Positions 10,932 through 52,664 of a stretch of 64,000 nt of DNA are shown piece after piece. The stretch comes from an uncultured Candidatus Saccharibacteria bacterium (GTDB lineage Bacteria; Patescibacteriota; Minisyncoccia; Phycocordibacterales; UBA9973). The notes under the pieces are model-generated. The model made no database searches. It saw nothing but the letters and a program-made list of their open reading frames with translations, and was not told where the DNA came from. The position numbers and the translations under genes were made by a program. The stretch lies in NCBI GenBank assembly GCA_964398205.1, contig CAYNLU010000002.1:1004-65003 (forward strand), in the 5' to 3' direction. Numbering within the stretch: the stretch's first letter is position 1; each line of letters opens with the position of its first letter.

Positions 10932-11213
10932 CTGTTGGTAACCGCACTACACAATAATCTCAATGTAAGCTACAGTACAAAAATACCCTTGAAAATGGTA
11001 TAATTCGTTTACAATTTAATAATAGACCTAACCCCTCAATTTATTGAGGATATGGTCGCCAAATCCGTCCAAAGTAAAGAACTCCTAGTCAGAGTCTACT
11101 TTGGACGGTCATATCTGGAAACGGGTATGGGTATACCTCACGGGGTATATCGGATCTGGCTGGGAGCTTTTTGCTACCTATACGATCCTTCATAACAAAA
11201 CCGTCCAAAGTTT

Positions 11214-39174: not shown

Positions 39175-39324
39175 ATGAAAATGTTATTAGGATTTTTTGG
39201 AATAATTGCAATTATGTGGATAGCTTGGTATTTTAGCGGAGGAGTTTATCGTTTTGAACAAGAAAATCCAGGCAAATTTATAAAACCACTAGAATTAGAC
39301 AAGGAAGCAGAAACTTATAATTAA
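39175..39324 (+). CDS. small membrane peptide (49 aa), not in ORF track
   Basis: ATG 39175 to TAA 39324. MKMLLGFFGIIAIMWIAWYFSGG... single TM helix. Confidence 0.3.
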   Translation: MKMLLGFFGIIAIMWIAWYFSGGVYRFEQENPGKFIKPLELDKEAETYN

Positions 39325-39797
39325 AGTTTCAAAACTCCGTACAAGAAAATCCCCAAAGATACCGATACGTTTAGGGATTCCTTTTTCCCACGCATCGGTA
39401 TTTCCCCTATTTGATCGCATTTTGCTAAAGTCTTTTTATCAATACCTAAAACTTCGTTTCCCACAAGGAAAGCGTTTTTCTCTCCAAGTTTAATTTTACG
39501 ATAATGTACTGAATTTTTATCTTGCTCAAGCGCTATGATTTGATAACCGTCTTTCTTAAGTTTATTTAAAAGCATACTAAAGCTTTTTTTTATTTCCCAA
39601 GGCACAGATTCTTCAGCTCCGAGCGCTGACTTTGCGATATCATTACGTTTTTTACCGAACCTATCTAATGGCGCCGGGGTATATCCGGTAATATATATCT
39701 TATCTATACCTACCGCATCGGAAGTTCTAAAAATAGCTCCGACGTTCTCGGTACTACGTATATTATTCAGTATTAAAATATTTGTTTGTTTTTTCAT
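39321..39797 (-). CDS. SpoU/TrmH-family RNA 2'-O-methyltransferase
   Basis: 158 aa. SPOUT motifs incl. GNEVLGI and C-terminal knot region. Confidence 0.7.
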   Translation of the reverse strand: MKKQTNILILNNIRSTENVGAIFRTSDAVGIDKIYITGYTPAPLDRFGKKRNDIAKSALGAEESVPWEIKKSFSMLLNKLKKDGYQIIALEQDKNSVHYRKIKLGEKNAFLVGNEVLGIDKKTLAKCDQIGEIPMRGKKESLNVSVSLGIFLYGVLKL

Positions 39798-39798
39798 A

Positions 39799-40995
39799 TT
39801 ATTTTAAAAAATTTTTATTGCGCATTTGTTTATGATAAGTTATAGCGAAACGATGAGCTTCCGAATTCACTAATAGGATTTCTCGTTCGTATTTCCGAGC
39901 GAAGGTTTTATCACCTAGTATATCTTTCGGTTTATGACGCTCATCTTTTAAAACTGAAACTATCAGTATATCGAGATTAAATTGCTTAAGAATTTTATTA
40001 GTTATATTTAATTGAGCCTTACCTCCGTCTACAACGATCAGATTAGGGATAGGCCACTCGGAATGATTAAATCTTCTCTCTAAAATTTCAGCTAAAGCTC
40101 CAGTATCGTCTGCCTCAAATTTAGTTTTAATTTTAAATTTCTTATATTCTCGTTTAGCTACTTCCCCATTTAAAAGCACAGTCATAACTCCTACCATATT
40201 TTTACCGCTCATATGAGCTATATCATAAGCTTCTATCCTAAAATCAGATTGATTACCTGAATTATTTAAATCTTCTTTAATAAGAGCGATATCGTTAATA
40301 TGCTCTAAGGCAAAAATCTTTCTTTTGACTTCACCGGCTTTTTCAAAAGCTTTTTCTTTCGCATATTGATTCATCTCTTTTTTAAAAAGAGAAATTATTT
40401 TCTTTTTCTTACCTTCAAAGAAAAGAATTATATTTTTAATATTCTTTTTATTCTCTTCGTTAGTTTCAGGATTGAGAGCAAGTTGCTTATAAAATTCTTC
40501 TTTACCTTTTGTGCCTTTGCGGTCTTCTATATACGGGAAAAATTTACGAATAATTTTCAAAGCTTCCCGTAAAGAATTCCCCGAAGTAAAAGGGCCGAAA
40601 ACTTTTTTAAACTTTTTTATTTCTTGTGAGTACAATAATTCTTTACCCCTTATAGTTCCTAATTTATAGTCTTGAGTTATATAAACATAGTTGAAACTCT
40701 TATCGGATTTCTCTTTGGTATTATATTTCGGTTGATATTTCTTTATTAAATTTGCCTCAAGAATTAAAGCCTCAAGAACGCTAGGAGTAATCTCAAATTT
40801 TAAATCATCAGCTTTAAAAACCATATCTAAGATAAGTGGCCCGCGAGTATTTATCAAATCAGGAGAAAAATAACTTTTAACTCTATCTTTTAAATTAGTT
40901 GCTTTACCGATATATATAATCTCCCCCTTCTCCATAAAGAAATAAACTCCGGGTTTTTCAGGTAGGTTATATTTTTTAATATCTTGACTTTTCAT
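39799..40995 (-). CDS. uvrC: excinuclease ABC subunit C, short form (GIY-YIG + UVR + RNase H-like domain, no HhH)
   Basis: 398 aa. GIY-YIG GVYFFMEKGEIIYIGKATNLKDRVKSY, UVR-like KEKAFEKAGEVKRKIFALEHI, C-terminal RIEAYDIAHMSG...VDGGKAQL...EAHRFAI. Confidence 0.7.
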   Translation of the reverse strand: MKSQDIKKYNLPEKPGVYFFMEKGEIIYIGKATNLKDRVKSYFSPDLINTRGPLILDMVFKADDLKFEITPSVLEALILEANLIKKYQPKYNTKEKSDKSFNYVYITQDYKLGTIRGKELLYSQEIKKFKKVFGPFTSGNSLREALKIIRKFFPYIEDRKGTKGKEEFYKQLALNPETNEENKKNIKNIILFFEGKKKKIISLFKKEMNQYAKEKAFEKAGEVKRKIFALEHINDIALIKEDLNNSGNQSDFRIEAYDIAHMSGKNMVGVMTVLLNGEVAKREYKKFKIKTKFEADDTGALAEILERRFNHSEWPIPNLIVVDGGKAQLNITNKILKQFNLDILIVSVLKDERHKPKDILGDKTFARKYEREILLVNSEAHRFAITYHKQMRNKNFLK

Positions 40996-41402: not shown

Positions 41403-44141
41403 TTATTTTCTCAAAATCTTCTTGAGGTAAAATCCAGTATGGGAATTCTTGTTATTCGCTACTTCTTCTGGAGTTCCTTTTGCTATTAATTTACCTCCTC
41501 CGATTCCTCCTTCAGGACCGAAGTCTAGTAAATAATCCGAATTCTTAATAATATCTAGATTGTGCTCTATCAATACTACTGTATTACCTTTACTTACTAA
41601 TTTATTTAAAACTTCTAGAAGTTTATGAACGTCATCGTAGTGAAGCCCTACGGTCGGCTCGTCGAGTAGGTAGATAGTTTTCTCTAAATGCGGACGATAA
41701 AGTTCACTTGAAATTTTAACTCTTTGAGCTTCTCCTCCAGAAAGCGTAGTCGCACTTTGACCTAATTCTAAATATCCGAGCCCTACGTCCATCAGGGTTT
41801 GCAATCTATCATAAATAGCCGGAATATCTTTAAAGAATTTTAATCCTTCTTCAACTGTCATCCGTAAAACTTCATAAATATTTTTCTTCTTGTATTTTAC
41901 AGTCAAAGTTTCTTTATCAAATCTCTTACCTCCACAAACGTCACAAGTAACGTAAACCGTCGGCAAGAAATGCATCTCAACCGCAATCTCACCGTTCCCT
42001 TCACAAGCTTCGCAACGCCCACCTTTGACGTTAAAAGAAAACCGATTAGACTTCCAACCTCGAAGCCGAGCTTCTTCAGTTTCCGCAAATAAATCTCGAA
42101 TATGAGTAAAAGTTCCTGTATAAGTCGCGATATTAGAACGAGGAGTTCGTCCGATTGGAGACTGATCTATTAGAATCACTCGAGATAGATACTCGGTACC
42201 CGAGAAAGAACTACAATTAAAAACTTGCGCGGTGCGATATTTCCTCTCTAGACGAGCTTGAAGATTTTTAAATAAAACTTCATACATAAAAGAAGATTTA
42301 CCAGAACCTGAAACCCCAGTAATAGTAGTCATAACTCCGAGAGGAATTTCAGCATTCAAATTATCAATATTAAAAATCTTTGCTCCAACTACTTTTAGAG
42401 AACCCTTACCTTCGCGTCTTTTTTCTGGAATTTCGATTTTAATTTCTTCTCTTAAATATCCTAATGTGCGAGAATTACTAGTATTCTTTTTAGCAGTTAA
42501 TAAATCTTCTAAATATCCTGACGCTACTACTTCCCCTCCGTGCACTCCTGCTTTCGGGCCTATATCTACTATATAATCCGAAGCATAAATAGTATCTTCG
42601 TCATGCTCAACTACTAAAATAGTATTTCCTAAATCTCTTAAATCAAGTAAAGTTTTAATAAGTCTATCGTTATCGCGTTGATGAAGTCCAATAGTCGGCT
42701 CGTCTAATACGTATAAAGCTCCTACGAGTTTCGAGCCAAGTTGAGAAGCGAGACGTATTCTTTGGGCTTCTCCTCCTGAGAGAGTATTTGCTTTTCTAGA
42801 AAGCTCTAGATAATCAAGTCCTACGTCTAGCATAAATTTAAGTCTATCTTCTATCTCACGAACTACAGGCAAAGATATCTCGCGTTCTTTCGGAGAAAGT
42901 TTTAAGTTTTTGAAAAATTCATAAGCGTCTTTAATAGACATAGAAGTTAAATCTAAAATATTTATTCTATCTTTATTTTCTTTGCCCTTATCTCCGCCCA
43001 GACCTCGGGACTGATTTTTTTTACTACTCACCCCGAGGTCTGGGCGGGAGTCTTTAATTAAAAATACGTTAAGAGCTTCTACTCTTAAACGTGCACCCTT
43101 ACAATCATCGCAAGGTTCGTCCCCTCCAAAATATTTACTACCGAGACCGTTACAAGTAGGACAAGCTCCATAAGGAGAATTAAAAGAAAAAAGTCTAGGT
43201 TCTACTTCTGGGAAAGAAAAACCGTCATTCTTACAAGCAAATTTATTTGAGAAAAGGAATTCAAAACCCCCTAAATCCCCCTTATCAGGGGGATTATTCT
43301 TCCCCTGATAAGGGGAAGTTAGATGGGGTTCTTGCCCAATATCAATCAGTACTAACCCATCCGCCTCGAGCAAAGCTCGCTCGACTGCTTCCGCTAGTCT
43401 AGCTCGCGCCTCATCTTTATTGTCAAAAAATTCGTGCACTAAAAATTGATCTACTAAAATATCAATATTATGAGCTTTATTTTTAGAAAGAGTTATTTGC
43501 TCGCGGAGACTTTTCATAACTCCGTCTAAGCGAATATTAGAAAATCCTTTAGAAAGTAAATCATAAAGCATTTGATAATATTCCCCTTTTCTACCTCTAA
43601 CTACTGGCGCGTAAATATTTATAGGAGTATCATCCCAAGAAACTCCCAAAACACTTTTCTTGGATTTTTGATTTTTATTTAAAGTATTTATTTTTTCTAA
43701 AATAAAATTAATGATTTCTTCGTTAGAAAGTTTTTTGATTTCTTCTTTACAGATTGGACAATGCGGTACCCCTATCCGCGCATACATAACGCGAAGATAA
43801 TCATATATTTCCGTAATAGTTGCTACAGTCGAACGAGGATTATTGCTTCGTGATTTTTGATCAATAGAGATAGCTGGAGATAAGCCTGTGATTTCGTCGA
43901 TATCAGGCTTCGGCATTTGATTTAGAAATTGTCTAGCATAAGAAGAAAGACTCTCTACGTAGCGTCTTTGCCCTTCAGCAAAAATAGTATCGAAAGCCAA
44001 AGAAGACTTACCCGAACCCGAAACTCCGGTAATCACAGTCATTTTATTCCTAGGCATAGAAACGGAGATATTTTTCAGATTATGAGTCCGAGCTCCTTTT
44101 ACTATTATCTCGTCTATTTTTTTATCTTCCTTTTTCGCCAT
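41403..44141 (-). CDS. uvrA: excinuclease ABC subunit A
   Basis: 912 aa. Two ABC modules ([28 protein letters not shown]), signature LSGGEAQR x2, Zn modules [14 protein letters not shown] and CEACEG...CDVC. Insertion domain appears absent. Contains two in-frame palindromic insertions. Confidence 0.9.
42992..43050. repeat. near-perfect 18/19-bp inverted repeat (23-nt loop) inside uvrA, translated in-frame
   Basis: ctccgcccagacctcggg...cccgaggtctgggcgggag. Encodes [23 protein letters not shown], extra relative to E. coli UvrA at this position. Confidence 0.8.
43261..43330. repeat. palindromic doublet of the CCCCTGATAAGGGGA(T)TTAGGGGTT repeat family inside uvrA, in-frame
   Basis: aaaaccccctaaatcccccttatcaggggg + cccctgataaggggaagttagatggggtt. 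Encodes [25 protein letters not shown]. Confidence 0.8.
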
Positions 44142-44173: not shown

Positions 44174-46360
44174 TTAAAGCTCTTTTTCCATCCTATTTTT
44201 TAGTACTATGATTTCATCGCGAAGTATTGCAGCAGTTTCGAAGTCTAGTTCTTTTACGGCTTTATTCATTTCTTTCTCTTTCATTTTGATTATCTTTTCG
44301 TAAACGAGTTTATTTCTCTCTTCATCAGAGAGCATAGTATTTTTAATACTATCACTTTCGTTTTTACCTTTATTGCTTTTATCTTTTGCAAAAGCTTTTT
44401 TGAAAAGCTCAATATCGAGTTCTAATTCTGCATTCACCTTTTTGCCGTGCTCGCTTTCCATAGCTTCGGTTATATCTTTAATATTTTTGATAATCGTTTG
44501 CGGAGTAATTCCGTTTTTCTTATTATAAGCTATTTGAATATCGCGACGGCGTTTAGTTTCTTTGAGTGCATTCTCTAAAGAATTAGTTAGTCTGTCTGCA
44601 TAAAGAATAACTCGCCCTTCAGAATTACGCGCAGCCCGTCCGATAGTTTGAATAAGTGAAGTTTCACTACGCAAGAAACCTTCTTTATCCGCATCGAAAA
44701 TACCGATTAACGCTACTTCCGGCAAGTCTAAACCTTCACGAAGTAGATTAACTCCAACTAAAACGTCATACTTACCTTTGCGAAACTCTGTAATAATTTT
44801 AATTCTATCTATAGTCTTAACGTCACTATGCAAATACTCAGCTTTTATATTCCGTTCTTTTAAATAGCCAGATAAATCTTCAGCCATTTTTTTAGTGAGA
44901 GTTGTCGCTAAAACTCTAAAACCTTTCTTGATTGTGATTTCAGTTTCTTTGATAAAATCTTGTACTTGGCCTTCGTATTTATCTTGCGATAATACAGGGC
45001 GCACAATAGTTTCCGGATCAAGGAGCCCTGTGGGACGAATAATTTGCTCTACTATTTGCTCACTTTCTTTCTTTTCGTATTCACTAGGAGTCGCCGAAAC
45101 ATAAATCACGTTAGATATTCTTTCTTCAAATTCATCATACTTTAAAGGGCGATTGTCTTTCGCACTAGGTAAACGAAAACCGTATTCAACTAAAGTCTTT
45201 TTACGAGAAGCATCACCCGCATACATTCCCCCTAATTGAGGCAAAGTTACGTGAGACTCGTCAATAATAGTAAGGAAATCTGGAACAAGTGATGAAAATT
45301 TCTTTTTCGAATGGTCTGGTTCTACTTGCGACCCGAGGACCTGAGAAAAAGAATTTTTCATCGCGGAATGAGGAAAATATGAAAGCAAAGTTTCAGGAGC
45401 TTCTCCTTCTACCTTACCTGATAAATGCCTAGAATAATTCTCGATTCCTGAACAATACCCAATCTCGCGAATCATAGCGAGATCGTAATTAGTGCGTCTT
45501 TTAATTCTTTCAGCTTCGAGCAATTTCCCCTCTTTTTCAAACTTTTTAATTTGAAGTTTTAATTCTTTTTCAATATTTTTAATCGCAACTTTAGTTTTTT
45601 CGTCTTCGGTTATAAAATGCTTAGCTGGGAAAATAAATACAAATTCTTCTTCTTTTAAGATTTTAGAAGAAACCGGATCTATGCGTAAGATTTTAGAAAT
45701 ATTAGAACCTTTCATCTCAATATAATAACTAAAAGTTTCCGAAGTCGGCATAAATTCTACGTTATTCCCCACAGAACGAAATTGTCCCGAAGAGAGATCA
45801 GCATTAGTTCTTTCAAAATGAATATTGACTAACTTTTTCATTAAAGTAGTTCGATCCATCTTCATCCCGACTTCAAGTTTAAGATTTACTTTTTGATATT
45901 CTTCCGGACTACCTAGACCGTAAATACAAGAAACCGAAGCAACTATAATCACATCTTTACGAGTGAGAAGTGCTTGCGTAGTAGCGTGACGAAGTCTATC
46001 TATTTCTTTGTTTATTTGAGCGTCTTTTTCGATATAAGTATCTGAGACTGGCATATAAGCTTCAGGTTGATAGTAATCATAATAAGACACGAAATAATGC
46101 ACCGCTGCATCAGGAAAAAATTCTTTAAACTCACTTGCGAGTTGAGCTGCAAGAGTTTTATTATGAGCTATTACTAGAGTCGGTTTATTGTATTTCTCTA
46201 TCACGTTTGCAATAGTAAAGGTTTTACCGGTACCTGTAGCTCCAAGTAAGGTTTGCTTTTTCATTCCCTTTTTAAGCCCTTCAAACAAAGACGAAATAGC
46301 TTCCGGTTGATCTCCGGAAGGCTTAAAATTACTTTTTAATTTAAAGACTTTCTCGCTCAT
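44174..46360 (-). CDS. uvrB: excinuclease ABC subunit B
   Basis: 728 aa. Walker A GATGTGKTF, helicase motifs, C-terminal UVR domain (LDFETAAILRDEIIVLK). Confidence 0.9.
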   Translation of the reverse strand: MSEKVFKLKSNFKPSGDQPEAISSLFEGLKKGMKKQTLLGATGTGKTFTIANVIEKYNKPTLVIAHNKTLAAQLASEFKEFFPDAAVHYFVSYYDYYQPEAYMPVSDTYIEKDAQINKEIDRLRHATTQALLTRKDVIIVASVSCIYGLGSPEEYQKVNLKLEVGMKMDRTTLMKKLVNIHFERTNADLSSGQFRSVGNNVEFMPTSETFSYYIEMKGSNISKILRIDPVSSKILKEEEFVFIFPAKHFITEDEKTKVAIKNIEKELKLQIKKFEKEGKLLEAERIKRRTNYDLAMIREIGYCSGIENYSRHLSGKVEGEAPETLLSYFPHSAMKNSFSQVLGSQVEPDHSKKKFSSLVPDFLTIIDESHVTLPQLGGMYAGDASRKKTLVEYGFRLPSAKDNRPLKYDEFEERISNVIYVSATPSEYEKKESEQIVEQIIRPTGLLDPETIVRPVLSQDKYEGQVQDFIKETEITIKKGFRVLATTLTKKMAEDLSGYLKERNIKAEYLHSDVKTIDRIKIITEFRKGKYDVLVGVNLLREGLDLPEVALIGIFDADKEGFLRSETSLIQTIGRAARNSEGRVILYADRLTNSLENALKETKRRRDIQIAYNKKNGITPQTIIKNIKDITEAMESEHGKKVNAELELDIELFKKAFAKDKSNKGKNESDSIKNTMLSDEERNKLVYEKIIKMKEKEMNKAVKELDFETAAILRDEIIVLKNRMEKEL

Positions 46361-46412
46361 AGATATAATATAGCATAGACAAGTTAGAAAGTAGAAAGTT
46401 AAAAGTTACAAA

Positions 46413-46485
46413 GTCCCCTGATAAGGGGATTAGGGGTTAAAATAAAAAGACCTGCACAAGATTCCATCAGGAATCCAGGCAGGTC
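46413..46485. repeat. intergenic copy of the CCCCTGATAAGGGGATTAGGGGTT element plus adjacent hairpin
   Basis: gtcccctgataaggggattaggggttaaaataaaaag then gacctgc...gcaggtc hairpin. Shares core and A-rich linker with copy at 51.8 kb. Confidence 0.7.
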
Positions 46486-51187: not shown

Positions 51188-51199
51188 GTATACTATTAT

Positions 51200-51284
51200 A
51201 GCATCTAAAGTACTTTTTTAGATGGTCTGGCCGAGCGTAATCGCGAGGAGAACCGAGGACCTCTTAAAAAGTATTTTAGATGCT
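51200..51284. repeat. ~85-nt element: 21-nt terminal inverted repeats flanking a GC-rich core, between tsaE and polA
   Basis: agcatctaaagtactttttta ... ttaaaaagtattttagatgct around ggtctggccgagcgtaatcgcgaggagaaccgaggacctc. Core has a tRNA D-arm-like TGGCCGAGCG. Confidence 0.55.
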
Positions 51285-51762
51285 AGAAATCAAAAATTCT
51301 TGAATTATCTCCGTTGTGTTTTATTTTAATTTTAAGTACTTTTTTAGGTAAATTTTTACCTAAGATTTCCGGCCATTCTATAAAAATTATATTTTTAGGA
51401 TTATTTAAAATATCTTGAAATTTTAAAAGTTGTAATTCTTTTTTAATATCTTTACCTTCTAAACGATAAGCGTCTATATGATATAAATTCTCCCATACAT
51501 AGGTCTTGCCTATGGGGTAGCGTTTCATTAATACAAAAGTCGGACTAACTACTTTCTTTTGAATTTTTAAAATTTTAGCCACACTTTGCACGAAAGTAGT
51601 TTTCCCTGCCCCTAGATCTCCAGAAAGAGTTACAATAGTAGCTTGCTTTACTTGCGTTAGGTCCCCGCCTAGCGGACGGGCAGGTTGCTTAACGTAAAGT
51701 TTATCTATAAAAATCTTTGCAATTTTTTCTATATCTTTAATATTTTCAGTAATGTATTTCAC
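51283..51762 (-). CDS. tsaE: tRNA threonylcarbamoyladenosine biosynthesis protein TsaE
   Basis: 159 aa. P-loop GDLGAGKTTFVQ and YHIDAYRL typical of YjeE/TsaE. Confidence 0.75.
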   Translation of the reverse strand: MKYITENIKDIEKIAKIFIDKLYVKQPARPLGGDLTQVKQATIVTLSGDLGAGKTTFVQSVAKILKIQKKVVSPTFVLMKRYPIGKTYVWENLYHIDAYRLEGKDIKKELQLLKFQDILNNPKNIIFIEWPEILGKNLPKKVLKIKIKHNGDNSRIFDF

Positions 51763-51783
51763 TTTTAAATAATAGCATAAGTC

Positions 51784-51866
51784 ACCTGATAAGGGGATTT
51801 AGGGGTTGTAAAAATAAAAAAGCACTCCAGGACGAACCTTGAAGTGCTTATCTTTTACCCCTAATA
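51784..51866. repeat. intergenic copy of the CCTGATAAGGGGATTTAGGGGTT element with internal hairpin and terminal inverted repeat
   Basis: cctgataaggggatttaggggtt-gtaaaaataaaaa-aagcact...agtgctt-...acccctaata. Termini ttaggggt/acccctaa are inverted. Confidence 0.7.
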
Positions 51867-51896: not shown

Positions 51897-52664
51897 TTAT
51901 CTGTATCCCATTCTCACAAATTGGTTTTGGTAAGCCTCTTTGTGAATACCGAAGTCGGCGTAGTCAGCATCGCTGAACTCACGCCAATAATAAATTTTTC
52001 CTTCCCAGTTGGGCTGAGATGGCCCTTGGTCGACTAAGGCTGCAGCTTCGGATTGCGGAAGTCTCTTCCATTTTCCAGTAGCTCCTCCCCAACCCGACCA
52101 TTTTGAACATCTTGCGTACGTATAGACTTCTCTAACATACACAAAGTTCTCCCCAGGAGGCATTCTTTCATAAATCACATACTCCTGGGGAGGATTTTGT
52201 AATTTATTTTCGGGAGATACCCACTCCCTTTTTGGAGCAGGTTGCTCCATTTTTTTTAAAACCTTCTCCGGGGTCTTTTCCCCTTCGTAAGCTTCTAAAA
52301 AAACCAATAAATTACCACAGACTGTGGCGTAAATTTTTCCATCCGAACTTCGGACTACTTTCGTAGTCCCCTCAAGCTCACAAATGTGAGCCATCCCGTT
52401 AGGAGAAAAATTTAAAAACAATCCTCGGCCATTAAGACCGATTTGGGGGAAAATTTCCCCCAAATTCTGAGTTTCCTCAGAAGAATTTATCTTTTTAAAA
52501 AATGGCCCGGTTTCACCCGGAACCTTTTGAGAGCCGTAGTAGGCTCTTTCTTTCCCTACAAGGAAACGGGTTCCTTGTGGTTCATAACTATACCCAGATT
52601 GGGCAGTAGTTATTGTTAAAGAAAAAAATAAACCGAACGCTATTATAAAAAAAACTTTTCTCAT
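51897..52664 (-). CDS. secreted hypothetical protein
   Basis: 255 aa. Signal peptide MRKVFFIIAFGLFFSLTITTA. Confidence 0.4.
   Translation of the reverse strand: MRKVFFIIAFGLFFSLTITTAQSGYSYEPQGTRFLVGKERAYYGSQKVPGETGPFFKKINSSEETQNLGEIFPQIGLNGRGLFLNFSPNGMAHICELEGTTKVVRSSDGKIYATVCGNLLVFLEAYEGEKTPEKVLKKMEQPAPKREWVSPENKLQNPPQEYVIYERMPPGENFVYVREVYTYARCSKWSGWGGATGKWKRLPQSEAAALVDQGPSQPNWEGKIYYWREFSDADYADFGIHKEAYQNQFVRMGYR

Follow-up and report, generated by a model that had tools for sequence, protein, structure and literature searches.

In-frame palindromic repeat insertions in a Patescibacteria uvrA gene and the probable descent of one of them from a small DUF559 nuclease cassette

The stretch analysed here, a window of 64,000 nucleotides from an uncultured Candidatus Saccharibacteria bacterium (assembly GCA_964398205.1, contig CAYNLU010000002.1, positions 1,004 to 65,003), carries the gene for the excision-repair protein UvrA on its minus strand, and within the open reading frame (ORF) of this gene lie two palindromes, referred to below as element 1 and element 2. 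The guanine-cytosine (GC) content of the window is 28-40%, and the names of homologues place the host in Patescibacteria/Paceibacteria. The gene and its two elements are arranged as follows.

41403..44141, minus strand: uvrA, an ORF of 912 amino acids and host gene of element 1 and element 2
42992..43050, minus strand: element 1, a family 1 hairpin in the turn after the second zinc module of UvrA (site 1)
43261..43296, minus strand: A-type unit of element 2, CCCCCTGATAAGGGGGATTTAGGGGGTT on the coding strand, matched by a covariance model at 48 bits (E = 1e-10)
43297..43332, plus strand: diverged B'-type unit of element 2, AACCCCATCTAACTTCCCCTTATCAGGGG on the coding strand, matched by the covariance model at 37.8 bits

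Solved UvrA structures match the encoded protein at E = 2e-292 and align with it end to end, with both ATPase modules and the zinc modules intact, and 13 contigs carry a record of a protein identical to it. As a separate observation on this protein, the canonical insertion domain of UvrA is missing at residues ~327-347 (43101-43163), in the window as in all 120 close orthologues: just 11 residues lie between CPTCNGLG and PCDDCKG, and residues 337-393 amount to 57 residues where solved UvrA has ~143 at the equivalent place.

An earlier note on this DNA had proposed that uvrA holds two palindromes translated without breaking the frame, and that the peptides they encode are extra to UvrA. Both palindromes were recovered as in-frame, stop-free segments, element 1 with arms of 16 nt and a loop of 22 nt and element 2 as an inverted doublet, and translation returned the peptides as given there. 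Comparing the window with its relatives showed that both segments are indeed additional. The four closest UvrA orthologues (P0002-P0005; 92-96% identity, 874-876 amino acids) lack both elements, and so does the syntenic relative L001 (GCA_031972685.1; 81-91% nucleotide identity), relative to whose DNA the window has 60 nt more at site 2 and 51 nt more at site 1, with conserved flanks. Opposite element 2, solved UvrA structures show a clean 21-residue gap. On this evidence, each segment is palindromic repeat DNA that was inserted in frame and is specific to the lineage.

Element 2 (43261-43332) is an inverted doublet of a ~30-nt unit, termed here the family-2 unit, and lies in frame and free of stop codons. 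Its arms (43271-43291 and 43302-43322) are 21 nt long and 90% complementary, and its fold energy is -44.7 kcal/mol (z = -5.9). The B' unit is inverted relative to the A unit, which corresponds to the right terminus of the DUF559 gene cassette described below, and an alignment of doublets with full cassettes identified the 9-nt spacer between the two units, AAGAATAAT, as a relic of the cassette interior. Searching the window for CCCCTGATAAGGGG with at most two mismatches revealed seven strand-matches at four places, against an expectation of 0.05, and the unit covariance model found four units in all across the 64 kb, of which two are in uvrA and two between genes, with the next-best match at E > 1. 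The two intergenic units are the free-standing copies of element 2 that the earlier note had claimed to lie nearby.

46410..46445, plus strand: solo unit flanked by the upstream gene's terminator and the uvrB promoter; L001 has an identical copy at this position
51778..51813, plus strand: solo unit upstream of tsaE, missing in L001 as a clean ~33-nt indel

A possible parent of the doublet emerged from a member of Paceibacterota (L066), in which a gene for a 126-amino-acid DUF559 protein is surrounded by four family-2 units. A tblastn search with this protein over the collected loci found homologues, with 45-50% identity, at just three further loci (Nitrospirales, Omnitrophota and Poribacteria), every homologue being directly flanked by units. 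The five distinct gene loci from the Candidate Phyla Radiation (CPR; L066, L144, L149, L150 and L151) that were examined at the DNA level are all unit-flanked, including two without a unit signal in the protein. Database searches returned 941 DUF559 homologues at E <= 1e-10; among the best 120 of these 941, the C-terminus is unit-encoded in 82 and the final residue is proline in 48. The full cassette measures ~0.48 kb and reads AACCCTCC..CCTCCCTTRTCAGGG-AGGAnnAAA-ATG..[ORF]..-AAGT-CCCCCTGATAAGGGGGATTTAGGGGGTT. It is made up of a B' unit, which is the source of a GGAGG ribosome-binding site, a DUF559 gene of 120-135 amino acids (PF04480) as its sole ORF, and an inverted A unit (or other inverted unit), which is the source of the stop codon. 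In several CPR copies, the terminal inverted repeats reach ATACAACCCC...GGGGTTGTAT.

The doublets in L059, in uvrC of L138, in uvrA of L002 and in uvrA of the window consist of both cassette termini, joined by 9-26 nt, and their junctions begin with AGGA and end with AGT or AAT, like the junctions of the cassette. The presence of both termini together with a cassette-type junction identifies the uvrA doublet as a deletion derivative of the cassette, which makes element 2 a 66-nt, gene-less descendant of a DUF559 cassette of ~0.48 kb. Two separate unit insertions around old sequence were considered as another origin of the doublet and rejected: the L002 spacer is in another frame and matches the cassette junctions.

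The DUF559 protein itself is predicted to be an endonuclease of the Vsr / I-Bth0305I fold. PDB entry 3hrl matches it at E = 8e-14, and its structure model (predicted local distance difference test score, pLDDT, of 89.7) retrieved 3hrl (E = 7e-6), 3r3p (probability 1.00, TM-score 0.79 normalised by target length) and 1cw0 in Foldseek. Residues D58, E69, D71, G72, H75, D82 and R99 are invariant in 123 sequences, other phyla included (D..E.DG..H..D motif). Vsr, DUF559 and 3r3p form one PD-(D/E)XK clade (PMC3424549), and the likeness of the model to 3hrl, I-Bth0305I and Vsr agrees with this grouping. With Vsr-like homing endonucleases, free-standing and intron-borne (I-Bth0305I, 3r3p), the protein has in common the nuclease fold and the conserved acidic and histidine residues D58, E69, D71 and H75, and its gene likewise is a small, selfish-looking nuclease gene of patchy distribution. 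Unlike them, the DUF559 gene is not associated with an intron or intein and has no target site that we know of, and it is bounded by inverted hairpin units that multiply without the gene as well. The DUF559 domain family is abundant, and we know of no role assigned to it. In the literature searched, there was no paper tying DUF559 to repeats, none with the motif sequence and none on palindromic in-frame insertions in Patescibacteria.

A unit-pattern scan with one genome per species recovered at least 120 loci. Among the matches listed, the unit consensus AAGTCCCCCTGAYAAGGGGGATTKAGGGGGTT is near-identical in Poribacteria, Nitrospinota, Nitrospirota, Omnitrophota, Chloroflexota and Zixibacteria, as well as in a sponge-associated gammaproteobacterium and several classes of Patescibacteria; Poribacteria make up the majority of these loci, with many copies per genome, including tandem arrays. 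Plasmids of Pseudanabaena (Cyanobacteria) carry a variant of the unit with a different loop. By these matches, family-2 units are present in at least eight bacterial phyla. Outside the CPR they are nearly always extragenic, and their orientation relative to neighbouring genes shows no bias (42 against 36).

Two groups of unit-bearing loci merit separate description. On the Pseudanabaena galeata plasmid pPg_02 (L142), doublets of the same architecture with a TTTACAA / TTGTAAA loop lie at 1500-1570 and 1618-1690, one of them overlapping the 3' end of an annotated oxidoreductase gene. In Poribacteria loci L009, L014, L029, L040 and L032, the unit is contained within larger composite repeats bounded by TAGGACTTACGCA ... 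TGCGTAAGTCCT, the reverse strand beside the unit reads AAGAGGAAATGCGTAAGTCCTAA, a ribosome-binding site with a 4-codon mini-ORF, and the tandem arrays have periods of 41-49 nt and identical spacers.

No Rfam family matched the elements or units at gathering scores in the window and ten unit-bearing loci, and permissive E-values yielded generic hairpin matches to microRNA models and nothing else. Cultured phages gave no match to the repeat. For the insert peptide, a word-index protein search with a 50-amino-acid composite query gave no match, and a HMMER search against cluster representatives returned unrelated repeat proteins, one noisy UvrA fragment and nothing else. Several other identities of the unit were considered and rejected. 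Pairs of units 0.8-3.6 kb apart flank ordinary genes and not the transposases that the ends of a classical insertion sequence (IS) would enclose; by inspection, the units show no consistent fit to the R'/R'' cores of integron attC sites. A likeness to the anticodon arm of tRNA-Ile is confined to the CUGAUAA loop, and the tRNAs of the window are for Arg and Lys. The unbiased orientation relative to neighbouring genes argues against a part of a promoter or 5'-untranslated region, and the density of four units per 64 kb is much too low for a DNA uptake sequence.

Element 1 belongs to a family distinct from element 2. Its arms (42994-43009 and 43032-43047) are 16 nt each and 100% complementary, they enclose a 22-nt A-rich loop, and the element lies in frame within uvrA without a stop codon. 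As RNA, the region has a fold energy of -41.5 kcal/mol (z = -7.5). The arm 16-mer occurs twice in the 64-kb window, both times in the hairpin, compared with 0.03 occurrences expected from shuffles. Family 1 as assembled here has ten members in uvrA and uvrB of seven genomes with a common 22-nt loop (..TAAAAAA.AAAAGT), among them copies with this loop in uvrB of L138, L139 and L141. While the arms vary between genomes, they stay complementary inside each copy: over the 23 pairs of the stem, 92.9% of cells are paired, compared with 25-54% after shifting the partner by 1-3 columns. Both-sided changes were found in 13 of the 23 pairs, and the 17 inner pairs show neither a one-sided change nor a G-U intermediate. 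Because these intermediates are absent, the symmetry of family 1 appears to be kept at the DNA level, with one arm copied from its partner or corrected against it, and not by selection on RNA structure. In L138, the uvrA and uvrB copies have near-identical arms, indicating sequence exchange between the two loci. A metagenome scan with the arm pattern of element 1 revealed two further copies at site 1 of uvrA, the rest of its matches being unrelated high-GC palindromes. In three high-GC metagenome contigs (L130, L131 and L137), an unrelated palindrome family, GAAGTCCCAGACCTCGGG...CCCGAGGTCTGGGACTTC, has the 12-nt core of the element 1 arms, probably by coincidence.

Four variable sites of UvrA were compared among 100-112 orthologues of 78-100% identity.

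Site 0: basal length 15 amino acids, found in 71 of 104 orthologues
Site 1: basal length 8 amino acids, found in 24 of 100 orthologues
Site 2: basal length 9 amino acids, found in 69 of 102 orthologues
Site 3: basal length 18 amino acids, found in 108 of 112 orthologues

Sites 0 and 2 belong to the UvrB-binding domain. Orthologues of non-basal length carry inserts of up to ~37 amino acids, with several recognisable families recurring at the same sites. At the DNA level, these loop inserts are GC-rich palindromes, and further ones are present outside the four families named here.

PPDKGDLGG: element 2 type
RxDLG...GLGG: element 1 type
QVLGS..PDHS: family 3
PEGK..SYGAG: family 4

A frame filter is evident among the inserts. 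The doublet is stop-free in two of its six frames and element 1 in three of six, and every genic copy uses an open frame and has a length that is a multiple of three. From their place in turns, it is plausible that the inserts form surface loops; an AlphaFold prediction for UvrA that drew on 20 near-identical sequences had a mean pLDDT of 37, too poor for loop mapping.

Related insertions were found in other genes of the window and between them.

45281..45367, minus strand: 29-amino-acid in-frame insert in uvrB, SAMKNSFSQVLGSQVEPDHSKKKFSSLVP, with a family-3 palindromic core at 45297-45351
51196..51290, unstranded: intergenic family-3 palindrome between tsaE and polA, with 67 nt missing in L001 and a fold z of -6.2
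51664..51684, minus strand: 21-nt in-frame palindromic insert in tsaE, CCTGCCCGTCCGCTAGGCGGG, 81% GC, missing in L001

In solved UvrB, residues 356 and 357 are contiguous at exactly the point where the uvrB insert falls; the insert matches an element in uvrC of L001 by BLAST, and its fold z is -4.3. In relatives, family-1 hairpins occupy the same UvrB site, and doublets or family-4 elements are present in UvrC. In UvrB and UvrC of the clade there are hotspots equivalent to those of UvrA. At 9047-9076 of L001, uvrB has a 30-nt GC-rich in-frame insert, CAATCCCCACTACGCCAAGGCTACGCGGGT, which the window lacks. In the ORF at 51897-52664 (255 amino acids), there is a GC-rich hairpin whose 13-bp arms enclose 22 nt of loop (52147-52194), and next to it an 18-nt palindromic indel, AGGGAGTGGGTATCTCCC, that is missing in L001 (52212-52229); both look like further small in-frame palindromes.

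Several features of the surrounding genes were also recorded. UvrC of the window (39799-40995) is short, with 398 amino acids compared with 414-445 in relatives, whose UvrC has Pfam matches limited to the GIY-YIG and the UvrC RNase H-like domain. The ORF next to it (39321-39797) is a SpoU methylase gene in relatives and thus not a detached UvrC C-terminus. The starts of uvrB and tsaE lie ~7 nt 3' of TGCTATATT and TGCTATTAT, respectively, which look like extended -10 boxes (46361-46385 and 51763-51790); this suggests that both transcripts may be leaderless or near-leaderless. A LOOT RNA (RF03000) was matched at 11025-11151 with 81 bits, compared with a gathering score of 46.4. In the uvrA neighbourhood of L138 (132-4632 and 7478-9584), inserted material parts uvrB from uvrA and comprises a type I restriction-modification system (HsdM and HsdS), a DUF3800 gene, an AbiEii gene and a Gp49/HTH pair. 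In L141 (29-1412), genes for bAvd (PF22296) and for a reverse transcriptase (RVT_1) adjoin polA and resemble a diversity-generating retroelement.

The earlier note had likened the two uvrA palindromes to the Rickettsia palindromic elements (RPEs), a likeness that holds for behaviour and fails for family membership. As far as the summary in PMC10969869 goes, RPEs (Ogata et al. 2000) are ~100-150 bp long and restricted to Rickettsia; like the inserts described here, they are palindromic DNA lying in frame in unrelated housekeeping genes, where they encode extra peptides missing from orthologues, and they form several families with both genic and intergenic copies. The window inserts, at 51 nt and 60-66 nt (units ~30 nt) and in a Patescibacteria host, are set apart from the RPEs of that summary by size and host. 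In addition, element 2 differs in having an identifiable gene-bearing parent and a cross-phylum distribution.

With repetitive extragenic palindromic (REP) sequences and their hairpin-forming doublets (REPINs), the family-2 system shares ~30-nt units, hairpin-forming inverted doublets, solo units, tandem clusters and one small gene flanked by units (PMC3116915). REPs and REPINs are extragenic and accompanied by the gene of a REP-associated tyrosine transposase (RAYT) of the Y1 (HUH) type, and REPINs are lineage-specific and vertically inherited (PMC3116915). In contrast, the gene flanked by family-2 units encodes a PD-(D/E)XK (DUF559) nuclease and not a Y1 HUH transposase, copies lie in the uvrA and uvrC ORFs, the GTAG/CGTC tag is absent, and the unit is near-identical across at least eight phyla. 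No Y1/RAYT gene was found in the window or in CPR loci by tblastn of the collected loci with approximate IS200 TnpA and YafM queries. Like a miniature inverted-repeat transposable element (MITE) and its parent IS (PMC10969869), the doublet pairs the ends of a longer, gene-bearing element whose interior is deleted; it differs in that a target-site duplication was not seen here and in that the parent is only ~0.48 kb and without a known transposase family. The family-2 system is a member of neither the RPE, the REPIN nor the MITE class. By description alone, the window inserts can further be likened, as tiny structured mobile-like repeats, to two other groups. The small dispersed repeats of Nostoc are very small (~20-50 nt) structured repeats that reportedly behave as mobile insertions, and we know of no gene associated with them. 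The mobile GC clusters and bypass elements of yeast mitochondria are likewise very small, structured and mobile-like, and occur also in coding sequence of AT-rich genomes; the bypass elements interrupt the frame and are skipped, whereas the window inserts keep the frame open.

Taken together, the most convincing explanation, which we consider likely, is that non-autonomous palindromic repeats have settled in tolerant turns of UvrA, element 2 coming from a DUF559 cassette and element 1 from a separate family. Short repeats of this kind would land in insertion-tolerant turns and would be read through as extra loop peptides, and what lets them persist would be a length divisible by three together with a stop-free frame in use. 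The doublet would presumably be moved in trans by the DUF559 nuclease, by analogy with the MITE/IS and REPIN/RAYT pairs. The insertions themselves, their repeat families, the tie between cassette and doublet and the repeated use of the same loops are shown by the data above, whereas catalysis by DUF559, the chemistry of transposition and the translation of the inserts are inferred. More tentatively, CCCCCTGAYAAGGGGGATTKAGGGGGTT and its partner unit may be the ends of an undescribed, very small mobile element with a DUF559 endonuclease as its sole gene, spread over at least eight phyla and spawning gene-less doublets and solo units that, in the gene-dense genomes of Patescibacteria, colonise excision-repair coding sequences as tolerated loops. 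Such an element would be REPIN/RAYT-like, built on a PD-(D/E)XK nuclease and not on an HUH transposase; we regard this wider proposal as a serious possibility that falls somewhat short of probable.

Several observations weigh against this explanation. Family-2 units are few, with four in the 64-kb window. A target-site duplication was seen neither at the tsaE-upstream indel nor at the uvrA site, the two filled/empty site pairs available, and an excision junction was not seen either; because of these two results, the argument for mobility is a comparative one. For element 1, a second copy was not found in the 64-kb window, and a more distant relative (L140) has the window's arm variant while the nearest relatives are without the element; loss in the nearest relatives is as parsimonious as gain in the window lineage. 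With tblastn, no DUF559 gene was detected in the 64-kb window, nor at the uvrA loci of relatives. Units at the three non-CPR loci are oriented the other way round about the gene, [B->] gene [A<-], and a simple deletion within this arrangement therefore does not account for most doublets of those phyla. The link could also run in reverse, with units inserting preferentially beside DUF559 genes.

These points leave room for other explanations, of which one concerns element 1 only. Local intrastrand template switching (quasi-palindrome correction) might have built the hairpin in an old variable loop that was later deleted in the nearest relatives, without any mobility. Its strict Watson-Crick arms are what templated correction would yield, L001, though lacking the arms, retains an A-rich, loop-like stretch at that place, and both the single copy in the window and the arms of L140, which nearly equal those of the window although the nearest relatives lack the element, would fit. 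However, the same family with its 22-nt loop is found in uvrB of L138, L139 and L141, and the near-identical uvrA and uvrB arms of L138 require copying between loci; we hold this account to be unlikely. For element 2, the family-2 units might be ordinary REPs or REPINs moved by a RAYT-type Y1 (HUH) transposase, with DUF559 a mere neighbour or preferred target. This is quite improbable in our view, as the flanked gene is DUF559 in all five CPR gene loci examined and in three other phyla, the unit gives this gene its ribosome-binding site and stop codon, the doublets retain the cassette junctions, neither a GTAG nor a CGTC tag is present, and near-identity across phyla is unlike lineage-specific REPs. 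The architecture of hairpin-forming inverted doublets, solo units and tandem clusters does fit the REPINs of PMC3116915, and two weak Y1-transposase-like tblastn matches were obtained in Poribacteria loci, but both lie away from units and none was found in CPR loci.

The hairpins might instead be functional cis-elements of excision-repair genes, acting in mRNA pacing or stability or as DNA cruciforms, and not selfish at all. From lineage to lineage, element 1 covaries strongly while keeping a fixed position in uvrA and uvrB, and both uvrA elements would give very stable mRNA hairpins. Nevertheless, the 17 inner stem pairs without a one-sided change point to symmetry at the DNA level and not to RNA selection, close relatives are without the hairpins, most orthologues have the short basal loop, and unrelated families occupy the same sites in different lineages. 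The same units moreover lie between genes and flank a nuclease gene in other phyla, with an orientation that is unbiased relative to neighbouring genes (42 against 36), all of which makes a cis-acting role very unlikely. It is hardly credible that the segments escape translation, either through removal as an intron or intein or through translational bypass. A precedent exists in yeast mitochondria, whose AT-rich genomes carry GC-rich bypass elements in coding regions, and both palindromes are very stable hairpins inside an ORF. Yet all genic copies have multiple-of-three lengths and sit in the few stop-free frames, neither segment is long enough to be an intein or a group I/II intron, and a possible take-off site is without a stop codon.

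On the reading we favour, that of non-autonomous repeats in tolerant turns of UvrA, the in-frame insertions add another case to a type of event already known, and the surprise lies in the DUF559 cassette and the cross-phylum unit. Discussion of palindromic repeats lying in frame in essential genes has centred mostly on Rickettsia, and the same behaviour is now found in the CPR. The recurrent hits to a few loops of UvrA, UvrB and UvrC provide a natural map of insertion-tolerant sites in excision repair. Finally, the link to a parent cassette offers a testable function for DUF559, a candidate mechanism for the movement of ~30-nt repeats and a possible explanation of how a near-identical 30-nt motif comes to be present from sponge symbionts to groundwater CPR bacteria.

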